DNA from: an uncultured Holophagales bacterium
GTDB taxonomy: Bacteria > Acidobacteriota > Thermoanaerobaculia > Multivoradales > UBA5704
Assembly: GCA_963842525.1 (NCBI GenBank)
Contig: CAWJGT010000003.1
Span: forward strand, 896,001-960,000
Length of the DNA stretch: 64,000 nt
Direction: 5' to 3'
This document shows, one piece after another, positions 4,120 to 64,000 of this stretch. How positions within the stretch are numbered: position 1 is the first letter of the stretch; each line of letters starts with the position of its first letter. The position numbers were made by a program, and so were the translations under genes. Under the pieces are notes generated by a model, which was given only the letters and a program-made list of their open reading frames with translations, did no database searches and was not told the origin of the DNA.

Positions 4120-4707
4120 TCACCACCGGTAGTGGCCGATGATTTTGAAGGAGAGGAGGATGTCTTCGTTCTGGGCGCCGGCGCCGATGTTGTGGATCAT
4201 CGAGTGGCGGTTGGTGCGGGGAACGCGGTCTTCGGCCACGATCCCGATGTGGTAGAGGTTGTTGGGCAGTTGCCAGGCGACCACGTCCCCGGGCTCGTAG
4301 GGGGCATCCAGAGGCAGATGCTTCCCCTTGCGCTGCAAGAAGCGCATGAGGTTGGGCACCCGGCGGTGGTCGATGTTGCGGTCCGGGCTCCGCAGCCCCC
4401 AATTGCGCGGGTAGGCCGAGAAATTCCTCTTCATGTCCTGGTGCAGCTCGACCTGCAGATCGACGCCGATCGTGCGGAAGGCCCGGACGACCACGTCCGC
4501 GCAGACGCCCGTGTCGAGGGGGACGTCGCCGTTCGGATAGCCAAGCCGCACGTAGGAGGGGTCGTACCGGGTCGTCACCCCCACCTGCCGGGCCGCGGCG
4601 GCGGCGAGAGCCCTCCCGGTCGGGGCACGTTCGCCTGCAGTCGGGCTCGCCAGCGCCGCGAGGAGCAGCAGCGCTCCGGCCGTCCTGGTCTTGTCCATGA
4701 CCTTCAT
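4120..4707 (-). CDS. DUF1287 (YijF-like) exported protein
   Basis: YDPSY..L.YPNGDVP...GVCADVVVRA and NIDHRRVPNL motifs typical of DUF1287. Confidence 0.88.
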   Translation of the reverse strand: MKVMDKTRTAGALLLLAALASPTAGERAPTGRALAAAAARQVGVTTRYDPSYVRLGYPNGDVPLDTGVCADVVVRAFRTIGVDLQVELHQDMKRNFSAYPRNWGLRSPDRNIDHRRVPNLMRFLQRKGKHLPLDAPYEPGDVVAWQLPNNLYHIGIVAEDRVPRTNRHSMIHNIGAGAQNEDILLSFKIIGHYRW

Positions 4708-4805
4708 TCTATCTGCTTGGTACGTTCCTTGCTATAGACAGATGTGATGGGCCGGCGCTGGAGCCGGCTTCTGAAGATCTCGTGATTTCGAGAGAGGAAC
4801 ACAAC

Positions 4806-5327
4806 ATGAAACTGTCCAAGCTCATGGCTGTTCTGTTGATGACGATGCTTCCGCTCGCCTTCGCCTGCAAGACCCAGGAAGAGGCGGCGGTCGACGATGT
4901 GGACGATACCGCGTCGACGACGAGTGAGCAGGAGGTGGCAGGGGTGGACCAGCCGGGCGACCTGAACCCGGTCGAGGCCCAGGCGATGGTCGACGACGTG
5001 ACGATCGGCAAGAAGGTCGGCGCCGACGGCATGATCGCGACCGAGGACCAGGGCGACGACTTCGCTCCGGGCGATACCGTCTACGTCACCATGAACGTCG
5101 CGGATACGTCTGCGGGCTCGGCGGTGAAGGTGGCCTGGTATGGCCCCGGCGAGACCAAGATCAACGACGAGGAGAAGTCGGTTGCAACCGGCGACAAGTA
5201 CCTGACCTTCCAGGCTGATACGGCGAGCTGGGCGAAGGGCGACTACCGCGCCGAGGTCTGGATCGGAGACGAGAAGGTCAACACCCAGCAGTTCCAGATC
5301 GTGGACGCGGAAAACGCCGGCAAGTAA
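4806..5327 (+). CDS. Putative lipoprotein with C-terminal beta-sandwich-like domain
   Basis: RBS GAGGA, lipobox LAFA-C, acidic linker, GC-rich codon usage. Confidence 0.75.
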   Translation: MKLSKLMAVLLMTMLPLAFACKTQEEAAVDDVDDTASTTSEQEVAGVDQPGDLNPVEAQAMVDDVTIGKKVGADGMIATEDQGDDFAPGDTVYVTMNVADTSAGSAVKVAWYGPGETKINDEEKSVATGDKYLTFQADTASWAKGDYRAEVWIGDEKVNTQQFQIVDAENAGK

Positions 5328-5362
5328 CAGCCTGGAGCCCTTCCCTTTTCTCCCTGGACCAC

Positions 5363-5393
5363 GGCGGCGGATTGCGCCGCCTTTTTTATTTTT
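5363..5393 (+). terminator. Intrinsic terminator
   Basis: GGCGGCG-gattg-CGCCGCC hairpin followed by TTTTTTATTTTT, between convergent genes. Confidence 0.8.
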
Positions 5394-8300
5394 GGACCAC
5401 GGAGCCGTACTCCCTGGCGAGGAGAGGGTTTGCCGCCAGGGCTTTTCTCAGCGAGGCAGCCGCCTCGTCGAGGCGGACACGGCGGCGGGAGGGGTCGGCC
5501 TCCAGTCCTGCGGCGAGGCGCTGGAGGAGCCCTTGGAGGGCCAGGGCGTTCGATTCGTCGGGATTGATGGCGAGGGCCTTGCCGGTGCGGGCGATGCCCT
5601 CCCGGAGATCGGCCTCGGGCCGGCCGCCCCGGGCGAGCGTCCCTTCGGCCCGATAGCGGCACACCTGCGCCTGGGCGAGGTAGATGTCTGGAGAGCCCGG
5701 GTTCAGGGCCGCTGCCTTCCGCAGGTCCTCTTCTGCCTCCTGGAACGCGCGGTCGGGGTCTCTCTTCTGCCCGAGGGCCCAGCGGGCGGCGACGAGATGG
5801 ATCCTGGCGCGCTCCAGAAATCCGTCGGCATCGTCGGGATTGAGCCCGATGTATCGGTCAACATGAGATTCGGCGGTGCGGACCTCCGCGCTCGGGTCCT
5901 CCCCCCGCGCGCGGAGCGCCTCTGCCAGAGACCGGTGGGTGTAGGCCAGGTTGTAGATTCCGACACCGTAGTCGGGAAAACGGTTGACGGCCTCCTGAAA
6001 GCTGTCCGCCGCCTTGCGGAGATCCGGCCGCGGATCGCCTCCTCTCGGTGTCAGGTACTCGGCCAGGATCAGATGGCTGTTCCCCAGGTTGTTGTAGGCC
6101 GAGGGGCGCTCGGGGTTGACCTGGAGGGCGTGCCCCAGGACCGAGACGGCGTTCCGGGTCGCCTCGGAAGGATCCAGGCCGTGGGCACTATGGTATTCGG
6201 CGATGTCGCTCCAGGCTGCTCCCTGGTTGCTGAGAGCCTGGAAATATCCAGGGCTCACCGCGAGGCTACGGTCCCAGGCTGCGATGGCCTGGCGGGTGAC
6301 AGGCCGGGGATCGAGGCCTCGCCGGTCCTGGTCGCGGGCAAGCCGGAGCCGTGTGAGGCCGAGCTCGTTGTAGTTCGGGGCAACCTCGGGCTCCAGCTCG
6401 ATGGTCTGCTGGGCCGCCGCGATAGAACGTTGGTAGGCGGGGACCGGATCGGCCCCATGGTCCGCCTCCCACTGCCCCTGGAGACGCCAGCAGGCGGCGA
6501 TCGTCTTGTGGGCTCGGGCGAGCCTCGGCTGGACCGCGAGAGCCCGCTCCGCCCGCCGCATGGCGTCCACCAGACCGGGCCGGGGGTCGGTCCCCGTCCG
6601 CTGCTTGCGGTCCGCACGCCCATACAGCAGCCAGGCCTGATAGCTGAGGGCGTCGGCCAGCTCGGGGTCGACCTCAAGCGCCTGGTCGCAGGCCGCCAGG
6701 GCGGAGTCCTCCTCGTCCAGTGAGAATCTGCCGAGATTGCTCAGCACCCCGATCCGCCGGATCTGGCGCCAGCATTCGCCGGCGTGCAGAGGCGCGTTGC
6801 TCGGGACAATCGAAAGGAGCTTGCCATAGATGCCTCCCGCGCGATCGAAGGAGAGGAGGGCCTCTTCGCTACGGCCCTCTGCGGCCAGATCGTCGGCGCG
6901 GGATGCCCAGGCCTCAGCCTCCAGTTGCACGGCTTCGTACAGCAGCGGGTCCCGGTGCGCCGCCTGGCTCGCCTTCCGGACAGCTTCCTCGTAGCGCCCT
7001 TTGTAAAAAGCGATCAGGGCCGCAATGTAGGGGGTCTGCTGGGATCTGTCCCGATAGGCCTCTTCCAGGCGAGCGAGGGCTGGCTGGCGATAGGTCCGCC
7101 CCATCTCCTGCCGCGCGTCCTTGCGGGCATCTCCCCGGCTGCTGCTGGCGTCGACCAGGGCCTTCTCGTAAACGAGGCCGAGGGCCCGGCCCAGGGCGGC
7201 GGCCACCTCGGGGTTGCGTTCGCCTGCGTTCCACGCCTTCTCCAGGTGAGACCGCGCGGGCTCGGGCTGGCCGAGGGCGAGGTACGCCTGGCCGAGCGCC
7301 CAATGGCCCGGTCCTACGGCGATCGGCCCCAGGTGCTCCATCTCGCGGCGGATCTCGTCGAGCTCGCTGCGGAGCGCCCGTTTCGAAGCGGTCACGTCGT
7401 GCTTGGGGAGGAGCGATTCGGCGCGCACCCGCCAGCCGATCTCGGTCACCCGTTGGCCGAAGCGTTGCGCGAGGGCGGCCCGCTCGCGGGCCTGCCAGCG
7501 GGTGCGGACGATGGCGGCGCCGAGGACGAGGAGGGCCACGATGGCGGTCGCCGTCACGACGGCCAGCGCGCGGTTCTTGCGCAGCCGCTTGCCGGCCCGG
7601 TACGACCAGCTCGCGGGCCGTGCCTCGATCGGCTCGCCGTCCAGCCAGCGGTCGAGGTCGTCGGCCAGGGCGCGCGCCGATTCGTAGCGCCGGTCCGGAT
7701 TCTTCTCGATGCACTTGTGGATGATGGTCCCGAGGTCGGCGGCGACCGCCGGGGCGAGCTTGCGCAGCGGGACCGGGTCCTCCTGGATCACCCGAACCAG
7801 GGTGCTGGCCGGGTTGGGTCCTGCGAAAGGAGGCGATCCGGCGAGGAGCTCGTAGAGGACGATGCCGAGGCTGTAGACGTCGGTCCGCCGGTCGAGGGAG
7901 AGGCCTTGCGCCTGCTCCGGCGAGAGGTAGGCCGGGGTGCCGGTGATCACCCCGGTGCGGGTCAGGGCCGCGTCCCCCTGGTCCTGCGCCAGGCCGAAGT
8001 CGACGACGTAGGGGTGGTGCTCCCCGGCCTCGCCGGTCGCCACCAGGATGTTGGCCGGCTTCAAGTCGCGGTGGATCAGGCCGGTCCTGTGGGCCGCATG
8101 GACCGCCCGCGCCACGTCGCGCACGAGGCGGACCGCGAGCTCGGGCGCGATCCTGCCGCGCAGCTCCGAGAGGCTCCGCCCCTCGATGTACTGCATGGCG
8201 ATGTACGGACGGCCCTCGACCTCGCCGACCTCGTGGACCTGGCACAGATGGGGGTGCTCGACGCGCGCCTGCGCCTGGGCCTCGCGCAGGAAGCGCTCGA

Positions 8301-59052: not shown

Positions 59053-60049
59053 ATGCACGCGACAATCCTCACCCTCCTGACCCTCCTCCCGGTCCAGGCA
59101 CCTCCCCCGAAACCCCCGGAGCCGGCGAGCCTGATCGAGATCCATGTCAATCCGCTGGTAGACCTCCACTACTGGGTCCGCAGGCTGGCGGCCGAAAGCG
59201 GCGAGCTGCCGGCGATCGACGGTCTGCCTGCCGCGGTGGCGGCCGTGCGACGGGTGGGCACCGATATCGGCGGCCCGATGGCCTGGGGTGTGATCGATGG
59301 CGGCCTGGTCGAAGCCGGGAGCGTGGACGAGCTCGCCCGCCTCGCCGCCGCTCTCCCCGAGACGTTCCAGACGAGGGGCGGGCGCGAGGTCCGGCTCCGG
59401 GAGGCGGTGGCGCGCCTTGCCGAGGCATACCGCCCTCTGGAGAAGCTTTTTCTTGAAAAGATCTGGCCTGTGCACCGGAAAGCCTCCGAAGAGGTGGCGG
59501 CCGGGCTGCGCCGCGACGTCCTGCCGAAGGCGCCGGAGGTCTTCGCCGACCTGAGCCGCCACCTGGAGGTTCCGGTCCCGAGCCGGCCGGTCCCTGTCTA
59601 CCTCGTGGGGGCCGCTCCCTTTCCGCGAGCGTTCACCCACAGGTCGCAGAGCGGCGGGGTCTGCATCGTGGCTCTGGCGGGGATGCCGGCGTCCGAGGCC
59701 CGGGAGACGATGGTCCACGAGCCGATCCATGCGCTGGACCTGGCTGGAGGGGAGGGGGACGTGCTCTCCAAATTGGACTCCCGGCTGCAGGGCTGTTCCC
59801 GGCGCGTCTCCCCAGGAGGTCCATGACTTCGTCCACACCCTGATGTTCGTGCAGGCGGCGGGGACGGTGCGGAAGGTCCTGGACCCGGGCCACAAGGACT
59901 ACGGTGACACCGCGGGCTACTATCCCAAGGTGCCCCGCGCTACTGCCGTGGTGCGCCCCGCCTGGGAGGCCTACCTCCGCGGCGAAATCTCCCGGGACGC
60001 CGCCCTGGAGCGGATCGCCGCGGGGTTCGCCCAGGCTACAATTCCATGA
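59053..60049 (+). CDS. Secreted HEXXH hypothetical protein (frameshift near 59790)
   Basis: Signal-like N-terminus and VHEPIH. Continues as VHDFVHTLMFVQAAG...WEAYLRGE in the frame of 59729..60049. Confidence 0.6.
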
Positions 60050-63000
60050 ATGCCTGAGAGCCACACGGCCTTCCTCAGCTATGCCCATCAGCATGAAGCG
60101 TGGGTGAGGACGCTGCACGCCAACCTGGAGCGGTGCCTTGCCCATCTCGGGCGGCCGGGGACGGTGTTCCTCGATCAGGTGGACCTGGGGGCCGGCCGTT
60201 CCTGGGTGGGGCAGCTTCAGGCGGGGCTCGAAAAAGCCGGCCGGCTGATCCTGGTGGCGACTCCCGAAGCGCTTGCTTCGCCGCGGGTCGCCGACGAGTG
60301 GGAGACCTTCATCGCCCGCCGCCGCGACTGGCGGCAGGGGAATCTCCAGGTCGTCCTGCTGATCGATGCGCCTCTGCCGCCCTTCCTGGATGGCGTCCAG
60401 CGGGTGGATTTCCGGCGCGGCGGCGAAGCGCAATACCGCCGGGCGCTGCAGGAGCTGCTGTCGGGCCTCCTTGGCCACGAAGACCGGCGCGACCTGCCGG
60501 CGCTCTCTCCAGAGATCGAGATCCCGGCGGCGCCCGATCCCGGTCTGCCTAAGGAGCTGCGCGGCCGGTTGGTGGCCTGGCTGGCGCCGGCCGTGCGGAG
60601 CAGGATGCGCCGCCTGGCAGTCGCTTCGGGGCTCCGCCTGGAAAGCAATGCCCTGGAGGGACACCCCTCACCCGAATGCGCTGCCTCGGCAGCCCTGGTC
60701 CTCGCCACGGGAAAGGATGACCCGGTCCAAGGGGCTTTGCGGATCGTCGACGTTCTGGCCGAGCTGGTGGAGGAGGAAGAGCCCGAGCGGGCGGCCGAGC
60801 TGACGCCGCTCCGCGCCGAGCTCGAAGAGCTGCGTGGCGCCGGCCCCGAGCGCGGCCTCCTGCGCGTCTACCTGGAGGCGGTCGACCGGGACCATGCGGA
60901 GCTGGTGCCCTACTTCCAACGCCAGGCCGAGCTGGCCCTGCTCGACCGGGTGTACGTGCAACTCGAGCTGAGGCCGGAAGAGCGCGGTTTTGCCGCGCGG
61001 GAAGGGACCGGCGGGGGAGCTCCTGCGGCCGCTGGGCCTGCGGGAGCTGTTGGAGCTCGATCCGGCGGAGCACCGCTGGGTTACCCGCCGCTGGGTGGTG
61101 CGGGGCGATCCGGGAGCGGGCAAGACGACGCTCCTGCGGCACCTCGCCGCCACCCTGGCGAAGGAAGAAAAGGAAAATCCGCGCCCGCGCCGGGTGCCGG
61201 TCTTCGAATCGCTGCCGCGCCTGGTCCGGGAGCGCGACCCGCTGCTGAACCGGCTGGCCCGCCGGCTGGAGCGCGCCGGCCATCCGGCCCAGGGGCTCCA
61301 GGCCGTGCTCGACCGGGCGGGACAGGAAGGACGGCTGGTCCTTCTCTTCGACGGCCTGGACGAGGTGCCGAAAGAGGAGCGCGACGAGGCCGAAAAGATG
61401 CTGCGCGACGTCGCCGCCCTCTGGCCGTCCTCCACGCTCGTCGTCACCACCCGTCCCATCGGTTATCACCGGCTCGGCCATGAGCTCCTCGAGCTGGACC
61501 TCCTGCCGCTCGACGCCGGCCATCGCCGGGAGTTCCTTGCCCGCTGGTTCGGCCGGCGTGCCGGCGCCCCCGATTTCGCGCGCGCCGACCGCGAGCTTCC
61601 GGTCCTCGAAGAAGATCCCGGGCTGCGGGAGCTGGCAGGCAACCCGCTCTACCTCACTCTGATGGCGCTGCTGCTGGAGAAAGGGACCGCGCCCGACCGC
61701 AACCGCACCCGGCTCTACGACCAGGTCTTCGAGCTGCTGCTCGAAGGCAAACACCGTCCCGATGGCGAGCCCATCGACTGCCAGGCCGGCGTGCGGGAGG
61801 TCCTGCGCCACCTCGGCTACGGCATGACGCTGGACAACCGGGACACCGAGCCGGTGACCGCCCTGGAGGCGCGGCTCTACCAGCCGGAAGCCGACCGCCT
61901 GCGCGAGCCCCTCGAGCGCGTCGCCCGCTGGCGGACGAGCCTGCGGCCCTTCCTCGATGACCTGTCGCGCAAGACCGGCATCCTCGGCCCGCACGACGGC
62001 CCGGACGCCGATTGGCGCTTCTGGCACCGAACTTTCCGCGAGGCCCTGGCAGCCGAGCGGCTCGAGCAGTTAGCGGCAAGCCGTGGCAACGAGGCCATCC
62101 TGGCGTTCGCCCGTGAGATTGCCGGCGACGAGAGCCGCTGGGCCGAGCCCTTCGCCCTGCTCACCGGCCGGATCGCCGACCCGGACGGCCTCGTCCGTGC
62201 CCTGGTCGAGGCCAACCGCTCCCTCGGCCTGCGCGCCCTGGCCACGGCCCCGGAGACTGCGGCCCGAGACCCTCACGGCGGTCCTCGCGCTCAGCGAGCA
62301 ATGGCAGGAGAGGGCCGAGGTCTACCGCCGCCTCCCCGAGCTCGTCGGCGACCCGGAGCGCGCCCTGGCACTCCTCGACCGGCTGCGCCGGCAGACCCGC
62401 AACGGCAACGACCTCTACTTCCTGGACCTCGCCGTGCGCTCGGCCGGCGAGCGCTGGCCGGACCACGCCCGAAAGGCCGCCGATTTCCTCAGCCGGTTCT
62501 ACAGCCACATCCCGCCACCGCCGGACGACCTCTTCCAGTGGATCGACACGCCCCTCGACGGCCGGGTCCCCCTGTGGCGTGAGATCCCGGCCGGCCGGTT
62601 CTGGATGGGAAGCCCGGAGGGAGAAGGGGACAAAGACGAGCACCCCCGCCACGAGGTGGTGCTCACCGCGCCTTTCCGGATCGGCGCGGTGCCGGTCACC
62701 AACGCACAGTACCTGGCCTTCGACCCGGAGCATCAGGCGACCCCGTGGGAAGGGGTCTCTGCGGCCGACCTACGCTTCCATCCCGCCGAGAGCGTCACCT
62801 GGTTTGAGGCCATGTCGTTCTGCCGCTGGCTTGCCGCGCGAGCCCCTTGGGCGCGCGGCGCCCGGTTGCCGCTGGAAGAGGAATGGGAGCACGCCTGCCG
62901 TGCTGGGACCGAAACTCGGTACTGGAGCGGAGACGACGACGCCGGCCTGGAACGCGTCGGGTGGTACGGAGCCAACTCCGAGGACCGGACGCACCGCGTT

Positions 63001-63321
63001 GGCGAAAAACCGGCGAACGCCTGGGGTCTTTACGACGTGCACGGCAATGTATGGGAGTGGACGGCGAGCCTTTTCACCCAGCAGTATGAAATCCCCGAAG
63101 GTGGGGTCCGCCTCGATTCCGCGGCCGTCGAGCCGCCTCTTGAGACCGAGCCCAGCGGCGCGAGGCGCGTGATGCGTGGTGGGTGCTCTTGGGATGTCGC
63201 GGTCTGGACGCGTGCGGCGGTTCGCGGCATCGGGAGCCCGGGCCTCGTGATCGGGAACCAGGGCTTTCGCGTTCTGCTCCCCGGCGCCCCGAGCTTCCAG
63301 GCTATAGATCTTGGATCATAG
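60050..63321 (+). CDS. NLR-like protein TIR + NACHT + FGE-sulfatase (C-type-lectin fold), about 1090 aa, two apparent frameshifts (near 61000 and 62250); probable DGR target
   Basis: TIR (AFLSYAH...VFLD...DEW), NACHT (GDPGAGKT, LLFDGLDE, VTTR, NPLYL, FWHRTFREAL), FGE (F.MGS...E.P.H.V, PVTNAQY, EWEHACRAG, NAWGLYDVHGNVWEW, RV.RGG...GFR). Confidence 0.85.
63160..63295 (+). other. Putative DGR variable region (VR) and 3' homing end
   Basis: RVMRGGCSWDVAVWTRAAVRGIGSPGLVIGNQGFRV. Non-scaffold codons are mostly NNY or NGG, derivable by A-to-N change from AAY/AGG template codons. Confidence 0.6.
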
Positions 63322-63651
63322 AGGGTGTGTTCTATGCGGCCGGCACGGCAGCCGGCGGCAAGAATTGACCCTTTTGCTGCCGCTGGCGGTGAAGAAAGCG
63401 GTGACGGTGACCCCCGAAAGGCAGGTTTCCGGCCGGCCGGGCAGGAGCCGATGATCCAATCGTGGAGCCCCGACCGCCCAGCATTGTCCGTATCTTGCTG
63501 GCTCTGCCACCCCAATGACCTTGGTGGCCAGCTTTGCGCCGCCAGATGGTCAAGATGCTGCCGTTTTCGGCAAAGCGTGCCGGAAAGGTGTAAGCGATGT
63601 CTGGTGTAAGAGTCTGCGGACTGCGGCGTTCTCTGAAAGGAGGACCCGAGC

Positions 63652-64000
63652 ATGGAGCTTTCCATCCGAGAGGTCGCAGTCTTGCTGGGCCGGAGCCCCC
63701 GGACGGTGCGTGCACAGGCGTCGCGGGGAGACCTGCCCGGCGTCAAGCGCAACGGGCGCTGGCGCATCGAACGCCGCAACCTGCCCCTCACCGAAGACCA
63801 GCGGCGCGCTCTGCAGGCCAAGGCCGATACGATCCGCGACACCGTGGAGGCCGCGCTGCCGTCGCGGATGGCGCGCTCGGCCGGGCAGCGAACGCGCTCC
63901 ATCGCCGATCTCGAGGCGTTCCGCCGGGGAGCGCAGCTCCTGGCGGAGATCCGGGCCGCGAGCCCGGAAACCTTCCGCAGCTCGATTCACGCGCGGGTAA
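63652..64000 (+). CDS. Excisionase-type HTH protein with possible Avd-like helical C-terminal domain (3'-truncated)
   Basis: Not in the supplied ORF track. RBS AAAGGAGG then MELSIREVAVLLGRSPRTVRAQASRGDLPGVKRNGRWRI...SIADLEAFRRGAQLLAEI. Confidence 0.75.
   Translation, partial: MELSIREVAVLLGRSPRTVRAQASRGDLPGVKRNGRWRIERRNLPLTEDQRRALQAKADTIRDTVEAALPSRMARSAGQRTRSIADLEAFRRGAQLLAEIRAASPETFRSSIHARV

Follow-up and report, generated by a model that had tools for sequence, protein, structure and literature searches.

A chromosomal diversity-generating retroelement with a TIR-NACHT-lectin target, a putative NLR-like sensor, in an uncultured Holophagales bacterium

We describe a gene cassette that begins near the end of a 64,000-nucleotide stretch of the genome of an uncultured Holophagales bacterium (the window, C3:896001-960000, where C3 is contig CAWJGT010000003.1 of the 9.95-Mb, 34-contig genome G000, assembly GCA_963842525.1). 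Taken as a whole, the locus is best explained as a chromosomal diversity-generating retroelement (DGR) with probably intact genes, whose target combines TIR, NACHT and C-type-lectin (CLec) domains and would serve as a sensor similar to NOD-like receptors (NLR); we assign this reading a probability of about 0.7. The order on the + strand is target, helix-turn-helix gene (HTH_17 gene), avd, template repeat (TR) and reverse transcriptase (RT) gene, all in the same orientation, and the whole cassette comprises 5.95 kb between bracketing direct repeats. The region C3:955001-975000 is termed L001 in the following, so that an L001 coordinate equals the C3 coordinate minus 955000 or the window coordinate minus 59000. 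Within the limits of sequence evidence, the DGR is established; what we infer beyond this concerns present-day mutagenesis, the ligand that is bound, NAD+ cleavage by the TIR domain and a role in immunity. A previous annotation made from the letters of the window (the sequence-only reading) had proposed a receptor whose binding tip is rewritten by a reverse-transcriptase cassette, and the TR, the Avd and RT genes and the adenine-specific pattern of changes support such a rewriting.

The comparison of the two repeats carries the main finding. A repeat search paired L001 4151-4295, which is the variable repeat of the adjacent target (VR-A), with L001 5646-5790 in direct orientation and with 89% identity. 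The ungapped alignment of VR-A and TR contains 16 mismatches, 15 of which are located at TR adenines (hypergeometric P = 2.7e-12). The changed positions span 63184-63253, whereas the final 42 nt of VR-A match the TR without exception and make up a GC-rich end that resembles an initiation of mutagenic homing (IMH) element; from there, 26 nt remain to the stop codon of the target. A second variable repeat (VR-B), found in a distant paralogue of the target, differs from the TR by ten substitutions, all of them at TR adenines (P = 1e-8, hypergeometric), so that 25/26 substitutions of both VRs pooled fall on adenines of the TR. The last codons of the target had been read as a DGR variable region at 63160-63295 before the template was seen, and the alignment moves its start only to 63151. 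A copy of this region beyond base 64000, differing almost only at adenines, had been set beforehand as a check, and it was found at C3 960646-960790.

The TR contains 27 adenines in 145 nt, and 26 of these occupy codon position 1 or 2 in the frame of the target. They are distributed over 22 codons, five of which are AAY; no stop codon is reachable from any of the 22. The theoretical repertoire of the VR was computed to about 10^15 proteins. The TR begins inside the avd open reading frame (ORF), sharing its final 22 nt, and the RT gene starts 146 nt past the TR.

The protein machinery of the cassette is encoded on both sides of the TR. The avd product was matched by the NCBIfam model NF033474 (2.7e-11, profile positions 6-104 of 104) and by the Pfam family bAvd (PF22296, 5.3e-9). 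DGR-type RTs are characterised by the motifs IGxxxSQ and YxDD. Both are present in the protein encoded behind the TR, as LPIGAYTSQ and YVDD, and the PADLOC RT model matches it with 5.6e-27; thus, the DGR-class RT gene expected beyond base 64000 was found as well. Unbroken relatives of this RT with 55-59% identity were detected at three other loci (L043, L046 and L069). No other DGR-like RT was found in the genome by tblastn. The remaining matches have 27-32% identity, belong mostly to multicopy loci with strong RVT_1 scores and are taken to be group II introns. Altogether, the genome holds at least 12 full-length RVT_1 ORFs in four near-identical multi-copy groups, likewise read as group II introns, plus fragments; sites include C3:1641386, C9:828972, C23:404516, C6:149873, C9:858453, C12:17655 and C19:363636.

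The target gene is distributed over three overlapping + strand ORFs (60050-61483, 60990-62582 and 62083-63321), each shifted by +1 relative to the preceding one. They had been joined on paper into one TIR-NACHT-FGE lectin protein of about 1090 aa. This holds, as the read-through protein comprises 1091 residues, including two X at the breaks, and each ORF contributes one Pfam domain above its curated cut-off: TIR_2 (PF13676) in the first ORF (3.5e-18, residues 8-136, ~nt 60071-60457), NACHT (PF05729) in the second (1e-15, residues 34-188, ~nt 61089-61553) and FGE-sulfatase (PF03781) in the third (3.8e-42, residues 167-398, ~nt 62581-63276). The translated NACHT domain shows a Walker A motif GDPGAGKT and a Walker B motif LLFDGLDE. 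The best PDB relative of the lectin domain is the DGR variable protein TvpA of Treponema (2y3c, 1.2e-18), and this alignment extends through the VR segment (RVMRGG...GFRV). Since the protein starts straight at the TIR strand FLSYAH without a signal peptide or a predicted membrane segment at its N-terminus, it is probably cytoplasmic.

The catalytic glutamate of TIR domains is positioned in an SxWxxxE pattern. In the target, the candidate residue E83 of the motif SPRVADEW (S77-PRVAD-E83-W) is invariant in 8/8 close orthologues and lies at S+6, like the glutamate in the motif SEWCHYE of Toll-like receptors (TLR). A TIR profile built from the 8 orthologues matched the TIR domains of TLR1, TLR6 and TLR2 in the PDB (2e-5 to 1e-3) and, weakly, Cat1.

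The BLAST comparison of the cassette with the genome revealed a second target, copy B, at C3:1387854-1391200 with 89.8% identity over 3357 nt. Only the target gene is duplicated there, and no third VR was found in the genome by BLAST with TR and VR. Upstream of the VR, the coding sequences of copies A and B are identical at 2782/3096 positions (89.9%). Within the VR, the non-adenine positions are identical at 117/118, the adenine positions at 14/27. Since the non-adenine VR positions are so much closer than the gene background, one TR appears to have overwritten both VRs after the paralogues diverged, and this is indirect evidence for retrohoming in cis and in trans. A dN/dS of 0.18 between A and B over 1030 codons (dS 0.29), together with the absence of in-frame stops in the corrected frames, indicates that both paralogues have been under purifying selection. 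The sequence that follows VR-A is kept behind VR-B, where 79/84 nt of 63296-63380 are identical; it is predicted to fold into a long, imperfect hairpin. This hairpin is absent after the TR and may be regarded as a candidate target-recognition structure. A search of the VR-to-RT region with Rfam gave nothing at threshold.

Past copy B, tandem repeats were observed at L010 8446-8709 (C3:1391446-1391709; period 102 nt, 2.2 copies, 97% matches, with 20/40-nt sub-repeats). They occupy the place that HTH_17 gene, avd, TR and RT take behind copy A and recall the repeats resembling miniature inverted-repeat transposable elements (MITE) that are reported from degraded DGR loci in the part of the work of Doré et al. 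considered here (PNAS 2024; PMC10907252). Further FGE/CLec ORFs with 40-51% identity to the C-terminal domain of the target are located at C3:1674612-1676520, C24:128769-133215, C9:1921369 and C23:2238; some form facing pairs, and no RVT_1 match lies beside them.

From these elements, a mechanism can be proposed. RT and Avd would copy the TR RNA and misincorporate opposite adenines, and the mutated cDNA would take the place of the VR in the 3′-terminal part of the target gene. In this way, the face with which the C-terminal FGE-type lectin fold binds its ligand could be rewritten in as many as 22 codons, and the single TR would service the adjacent target as well as the paralogue 430 kb away. 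By analogy to bacterial NACHT and Avs proteins, NACHT might then be driven to oligomerise once the diversified lectin domain has captured its ligand. This would switch on the TIR domain, which would cleave NAD+ or produce a signal and so bring about abortive infection.

Several observations weigh against the reading given at the outset. VR-A contains a single non-adenine mismatch (T in the TR, G in the VR, at 63220), and VR-B holds a 1-nt insertion (T) relative to the TR. This one mismatch and this one indel would also suit an account without any DGR, in which the 145-nt repeat has arisen by ordinary duplication or by gene conversion and the adenine bias is due to chance. Such an account is effectively refuted by the concentration of substitutions on TR adenines over two VRs, by the position of the repeat exactly between avd and RT, and by the recurrence of the same architecture in unrelated contigs. 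The scores of the machinery are low in part: Avd stays under the curated cut-offs (43.7 < 80 bits for NF033474 and 37 < 40 bits for PF22296), and the RT reaches 27.3 bits with RVT_1, below the cut-off of 29.6. For the effector, the TIR domain alone found no match in the PDB by phmmer, the structural matches of the TIR profile are only TLR-type TIR domains at 2e-5, and HMMER pairs the TLR glutamate not with E83 but, via a 2-residue gap, with the variable E85. PADLOC assigned the target to no defence family, the sole match being mad8 (6.5e-4, 17.3 bits). Moreover, as Doré et al. state (PMC10907252, in the part of the text drawn on here), no experiment ties any CLec-STAND protein to defence. Finally, the DGR genes contain six +1 events in ~7.6 kb, compared with about one detected per 17-20 kb genome-wide.

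These six frame switches, two in copy A, three in copy B (C3 1390782, 1390892 and 1391009 in the A-B alignment) and one in the RT gene (between L001 6601 and ~6612), are without exception +1 insertions. If they are real in the targets and in the RT, the DGR has recently decayed and the VR/TR pattern reports past activity only, which we consider rather unlikely. The local excess speaks for such a decay, and it is unexplained by repeats: a polishing failure related to repeats was tried as its cause and rejected, as paralogous DNA is found at 33/451 events and at 29/451 controls. Likewise, degenerate DGR loci with pseudogenised machinery have been described in another genome in the part of the Doré et al. 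text at hand (PMC10907252), and relatives of the present cassette hold degenerate copies, with a truncated RT at L045 and, at L046, an HTH gene that is cut short and continues into the TR. On the other hand, no nonsense codons interrupt either copy, the dN/dS of 0.18 is low, and the non-adenine VR positions of the two paralogues still agree at 117/118.

A further argument concerns the assembly itself. A genome scan based on the GC content of third codon positions (GC3) recorded sites at which a strong coding signal moves to another frame with the previous one remaining open for over 120 nt. This yielded 537 in-gene frame switches, 451 of them +1 and 86 +2, whereas ordinary gene ends show the opposite ratio (425 +1 and 818 +2). 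The six events in the DGR genes bear this same +1 signature. One of the affected genes is infB (L001 12060-15320, minus strand; C3:967060-970320), encoding IF-2, in which GTP_EFTU and EF-G_D2 lie in one frame and the IF-2 and GTP_EFTU_D2 domains in the +1 frame; it holds the only IF-2 domain of the genome. When large +1 pairs were checked, Pfam domains were split across the switch in 5/5, all of them nonribosomal peptide synthetase (NRPS) genes. Because some 450 broken genes, including the only IF-2, are implausible in a free-living bacterium, and because the insertion bias is one-sided, the frameshifts are probably assembly or consensus insertion errors and the genes intact in the organism. 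The +1 events are moderately clustered as well, 222/451 having a neighbour within 5 kb where 162 ± 13 are expected, which again argues against decay. Some of the six events may nevertheless be real. The sequence-only reading had called for the frameshifts of the target to be repaired: the single-base breaks exist, at 61013 and 62256, and they need not be real, as they bear the signature of about 450 others including infB. In near-identical copies of the presumed multi-copy introns, used as a control for indel errors, a few single-base indels were seen. Close to copy B, three successive +1 switches were observed within ~2.4 kb of one coding region (C3:1394179-1396595, minus strand), an instance of the clustering of such events.

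With the DGR retained, the role of the targets can be weighed. They might serve purposes other than antiviral defence, such as kin or self/non-self discrimination, aggregate signalling or environmental sensing, and we regard this as improbable. It would accord with PADLOC, in which none of the defence families defined by experiment was matched, and with the neighbourhood, in which no defence genes are evident and which consists of a small ORF without a Pfam family and a presumed housekeeping cluster. Distant orthologues (L041, L043, L045 and L046) are without the SPRVADEW glutamate motif, and signalling roles for DGR targets were discussed in earlier cyanobacterial work cited in the portion of PMC10907252 used here. 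Against this stand the layout of TIR, NACHT and variable sensor, which according to the same portion of that paper is the one of characterised bacterial NLR-like defence proteins (PMC10907252), the invariance of E83 in all eight close orthologues, and the N-terminus, which begins directly with the TIR domain and lacks export or membrane signals. The NCBIfam model EruA reached 36.9 bits on the target, with a cut-off of 1000.

The gene between target and avd deserves separate treatment. It had been described from the letters alone as HTH/Avd-like, of which the HTH part stands: HTH_17 (PF12728) was detected with 3e-10. The likeness to Avd does not, and the probable Avd is encoded by the gene that follows. 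As an Avd candidate, the HTH protein was rejected. Its C-terminal domain showed no significant BLASTP alignment to Avd (E = 0.76); Foldseek against the PDB gave a best E of 0.26, with 1.1 for Avd (4dwl) and 0.76 for the four-helix protein 2gsc; and the bAvd Pfam domain is carried by 0/66 homologues. An AlphaFold2 model of modest quality (pLDDT 65.8) suggests a winged HTH followed by a five-helix C-terminal domain. A profile of 29 homologues found in the PDB the HTH of phage Gp37 alone (4j2n, 0.0028). The family comprises 66 homologues, nearly all of ~199 aa and with PF12728 as sole domain. It is thus a separate conserved gene and not Avd.

A metagenome scan with the single HTH protein produced no confirmed relatives, and a scan with a closer alignment 10 loci. 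Among these metagenome contigs, avd lies downstream of the HTH gene in 5/5 that have downstream DNA, and an FGE-domain target lies upstream in 3/3 that have upstream DNA; the same position between target and avd was found in every related cassette examined. Within the phylum, the family occurred in 3/301 sampled genomes, G000 included, with 10 first-look candidates scored per genome. Our search of the literature on DGR accessory genes (Avd, helix-turn-helix, HTH_17, excisionase), which consisted partly of titles and abstracts, brought up no description of such an accessory gene. We therefore put forward only tentatively, at less than even odds, that the protein is a third accessory factor of DGRs, lineage-specific and hitherto undescribed. 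It might, for instance, bind DNA and recognise the hairpin region that is conserved behind each VR. Alternatively, it could gate the expression of the mutagenic cassette.

A match to the target at 1e-10 was obtained in 30/41 genomes searched, and public records of orthologues are metagenome-assembled genomes (MAGs) labelled Thermoanaerobaculia, Holophagales or Acidobacteriota. In six related genomes (G006, G024, G005, G002, G022 and G040), orthologues with 59-65% identity are open frames without internal stops that cover query residues 1-971 or start at residue 2-6. For many orthologues, no RT lies in the surrounding 9-12 kb. When five orthologue genomes were queried with the RT, only RTs of 41% identity appeared, in two of them, adjoining other FGE genes. 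The complete module of target, HTH gene, avd and unbroken RT is present at L043, L069 and L077. L043, from a Thermoanaerobaculia MAG, contains a second target, HTH gene, avd, TR and unbroken RT, plus a convergent NACHT-CLec target; L069 is a metagenome contig, and L077 (G061) belongs to another family of the phylum.

Degenerate relatives were noticed as well. The loci L045 and L046, on two contigs of G025, look like degenerate sister cassettes: at L046, the truncated HTH ORF continues in frame into an Asn-rich TR-like segment and avd is missing, while at L045 the RT match begins at residue 35, directly past the HTH gene, as in an N-terminally truncated RT. In the 4-contig MAG G024, two extra TIR-NACHT-CLec copies, each in two adjacent frames, stand beside one unbroken copy (C4:761963-764873 and C1:1601633-1604538). 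Either similar assembly errors or real decay in another genome with long contigs would account for these split copies.

The coordinates of all features are collected in Table 1. The left copy of the 37-nt direct repeat sits in the 3′ end of the ORF upstream of the target, where it codes for AALERIAAGFAQ; the right copy encodes AALERIVAGFAKK* and so repeats the C-terminal peptide of that ORF. This re-encoding points to the 3′ end of the upstream ORF as the site at which the cassette was inserted. No integrase was seen within the cassette, and a search for the empty site by means of the upstream ORF gave one weak partial match among five genomes of the same genus. The upstream ORF is small and has no Pfam family. 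Behind the RT follows a long convergent ORF on the minus strand, which we take to be pnp from its length and sequence. The downstream side as a whole is presumably a pnp-rpsO-truB-infB housekeeping cluster, of which infB alone was checked against Pfam.

Table 1. Coordinates of the cassette, its repeats and the second target. L001 is C3:955001-975000; empty cells, no entry.
Feature	Window	L001	C3	Strand	Remarks
37-nt direct repeat, left copy	59998-60034			+	35/37 identical to right copy
Target piece 1	60050-61012			+	N-terminal TIR_2, then linker
Frame switch 1	61013			+	one extra G, +1; G5, in copy B G4
Target piece 2	61014-62255			+	NACHT NTPase, then helical region
Frame switch 2	62256			+	one extra A, +1; GGAGACTG, in copy B GGAGCTG
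Target piece 3	62257-63321			+	FGE-sulfatase / C-type-lectin-fold domain and stop codon
VR-A	63151-63295	4151-4295		+	145 nt, 3′ end of target ORF
Post-VR hairpin	63321-63373			+	predicted, long, imperfect
HTH_17 gene	63652-64000	4652-5251	959652-960251	+	199 aa; cut by window end, whole gene in L001 and C3 columns
avd		5218-5667		+	149-aa ORF after HTH_17 gene
TR		5646-5790	960646-960790	+	145 nt, begins 646 nt past window end
DGR RT		5937-6945		+	~335 aa, LPIGAYTSQ and YVDD motifs
37-nt direct repeat, right copy		6948-6984	961948-961984		directly after RT stop
Copy B target			1387867-1391150		430 kb from cassette, same contig
VR-B			1390965-1391110		within copy B

Receptors of this kind are not without precedent. 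Doré et al. (PNAS 2024; PMC10907252) showed, in the part of the paper on which we draw throughout, that DGRs of clade 5D in Thiohalocapsa PB-PSB1 and other multicellular bacteria diversify targets that carry NACHT or nSTAND1 in the centre and CLec at the C-terminus, with TIR or peptidase domains at the N-terminus of some, and proposed them as 'antigen sensors'. Already before, DGR-diversified FGS domains had been linked to NTPase conflict systems (Kaur et al. 2020; PMC7159879, likewise used in part). The present target agrees with the sensors of Doré et al. in the central NACHT/nSTAND, in the VR within the C-terminal CLec domain and in the N-terminal TIR that some of them possess (PMC10907252). 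The DGRs of that study resemble ours further in that two targets per DGR are common, remote ones being diversified in trans, and in the existence of degenerate loci (PMC10907252). A difference is the host, here a Thermoanaerobaculia-like member of the Acidobacteriota, as the main text of PMC10907252 does not contain the string 'Acidobacteri' (0 hits). The HTH_17 gene between target and avd is a second difference, since that text, to the extent used here, has an HTH gene for the DGR 8 locus type only (PMC10907252).

With the DGR of Bordetella phage BPP-1 (mtd-avd-TR-brt), the cassette shares the order target-accessory gene-TR-RT, adenine-specific mutagenesis, a (here probable) Avd, and a VR that has a GC-rich 3′ end and lies 3′-terminally in the gene of a CLec-fold target (PMC7159879, in part). 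Unlike this phage-borne element, it is chromosomal, contains the extra HTH_17 gene, has two targets, one of them 430 kb off, and diversifies an NLR-like protein instead of a tail fibre. The bNACHT and Avs STAND proteins are built alike, with an effector (here TIR) at the N-terminus, NACHT in the middle, its Walker A and B motifs intact, and a sensor at the C-terminus (PMC10907252, same portion). In contrast to them, the sensor is here a DGR-mutable lectin fold in place of TPR or other repeats, and no significant PADLOC match was obtained. The FGE-type C-type-lectin fold carrying the VR is shared with TvpA of Treponema denticola (2y3c). TvpA is a stand-alone lipoprotein-type variable protein, whereas in our target the lectin fold is the sensor module of a TIR-NACHT protein of ~1090 aa.

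In every respect tested, the locus fits the class of Doré et al., and the concept is already published. What it adds to this class is the host phylum, the pair of cis and trans targets homogenised to one TR, and the HTH gene. For work on this genome, the hundreds of +1 frame switches carried by the assembly make 'pseudogene' calls unsafe. If the hairpin were indeed recognised by the HTH protein, this would let one TR and RT home to an adjacent target and to one 430 kb distant, and the HTH_17 gene offers a tangible new starting point for understanding how DGRs of this type locate or control their targets. The locus provides a fully anatomised, putatively hypermutable NLR-like receptor with TIR output, NACHT switch and DGR-mutable lectin sensor, in which one template would service a cis target and a distant trans target, and the compact cassette of ~6 kb is suited to reconstitution. 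It supports the idea that some bacteria may pair an innate-immune architecture with a somatic-style diversification.

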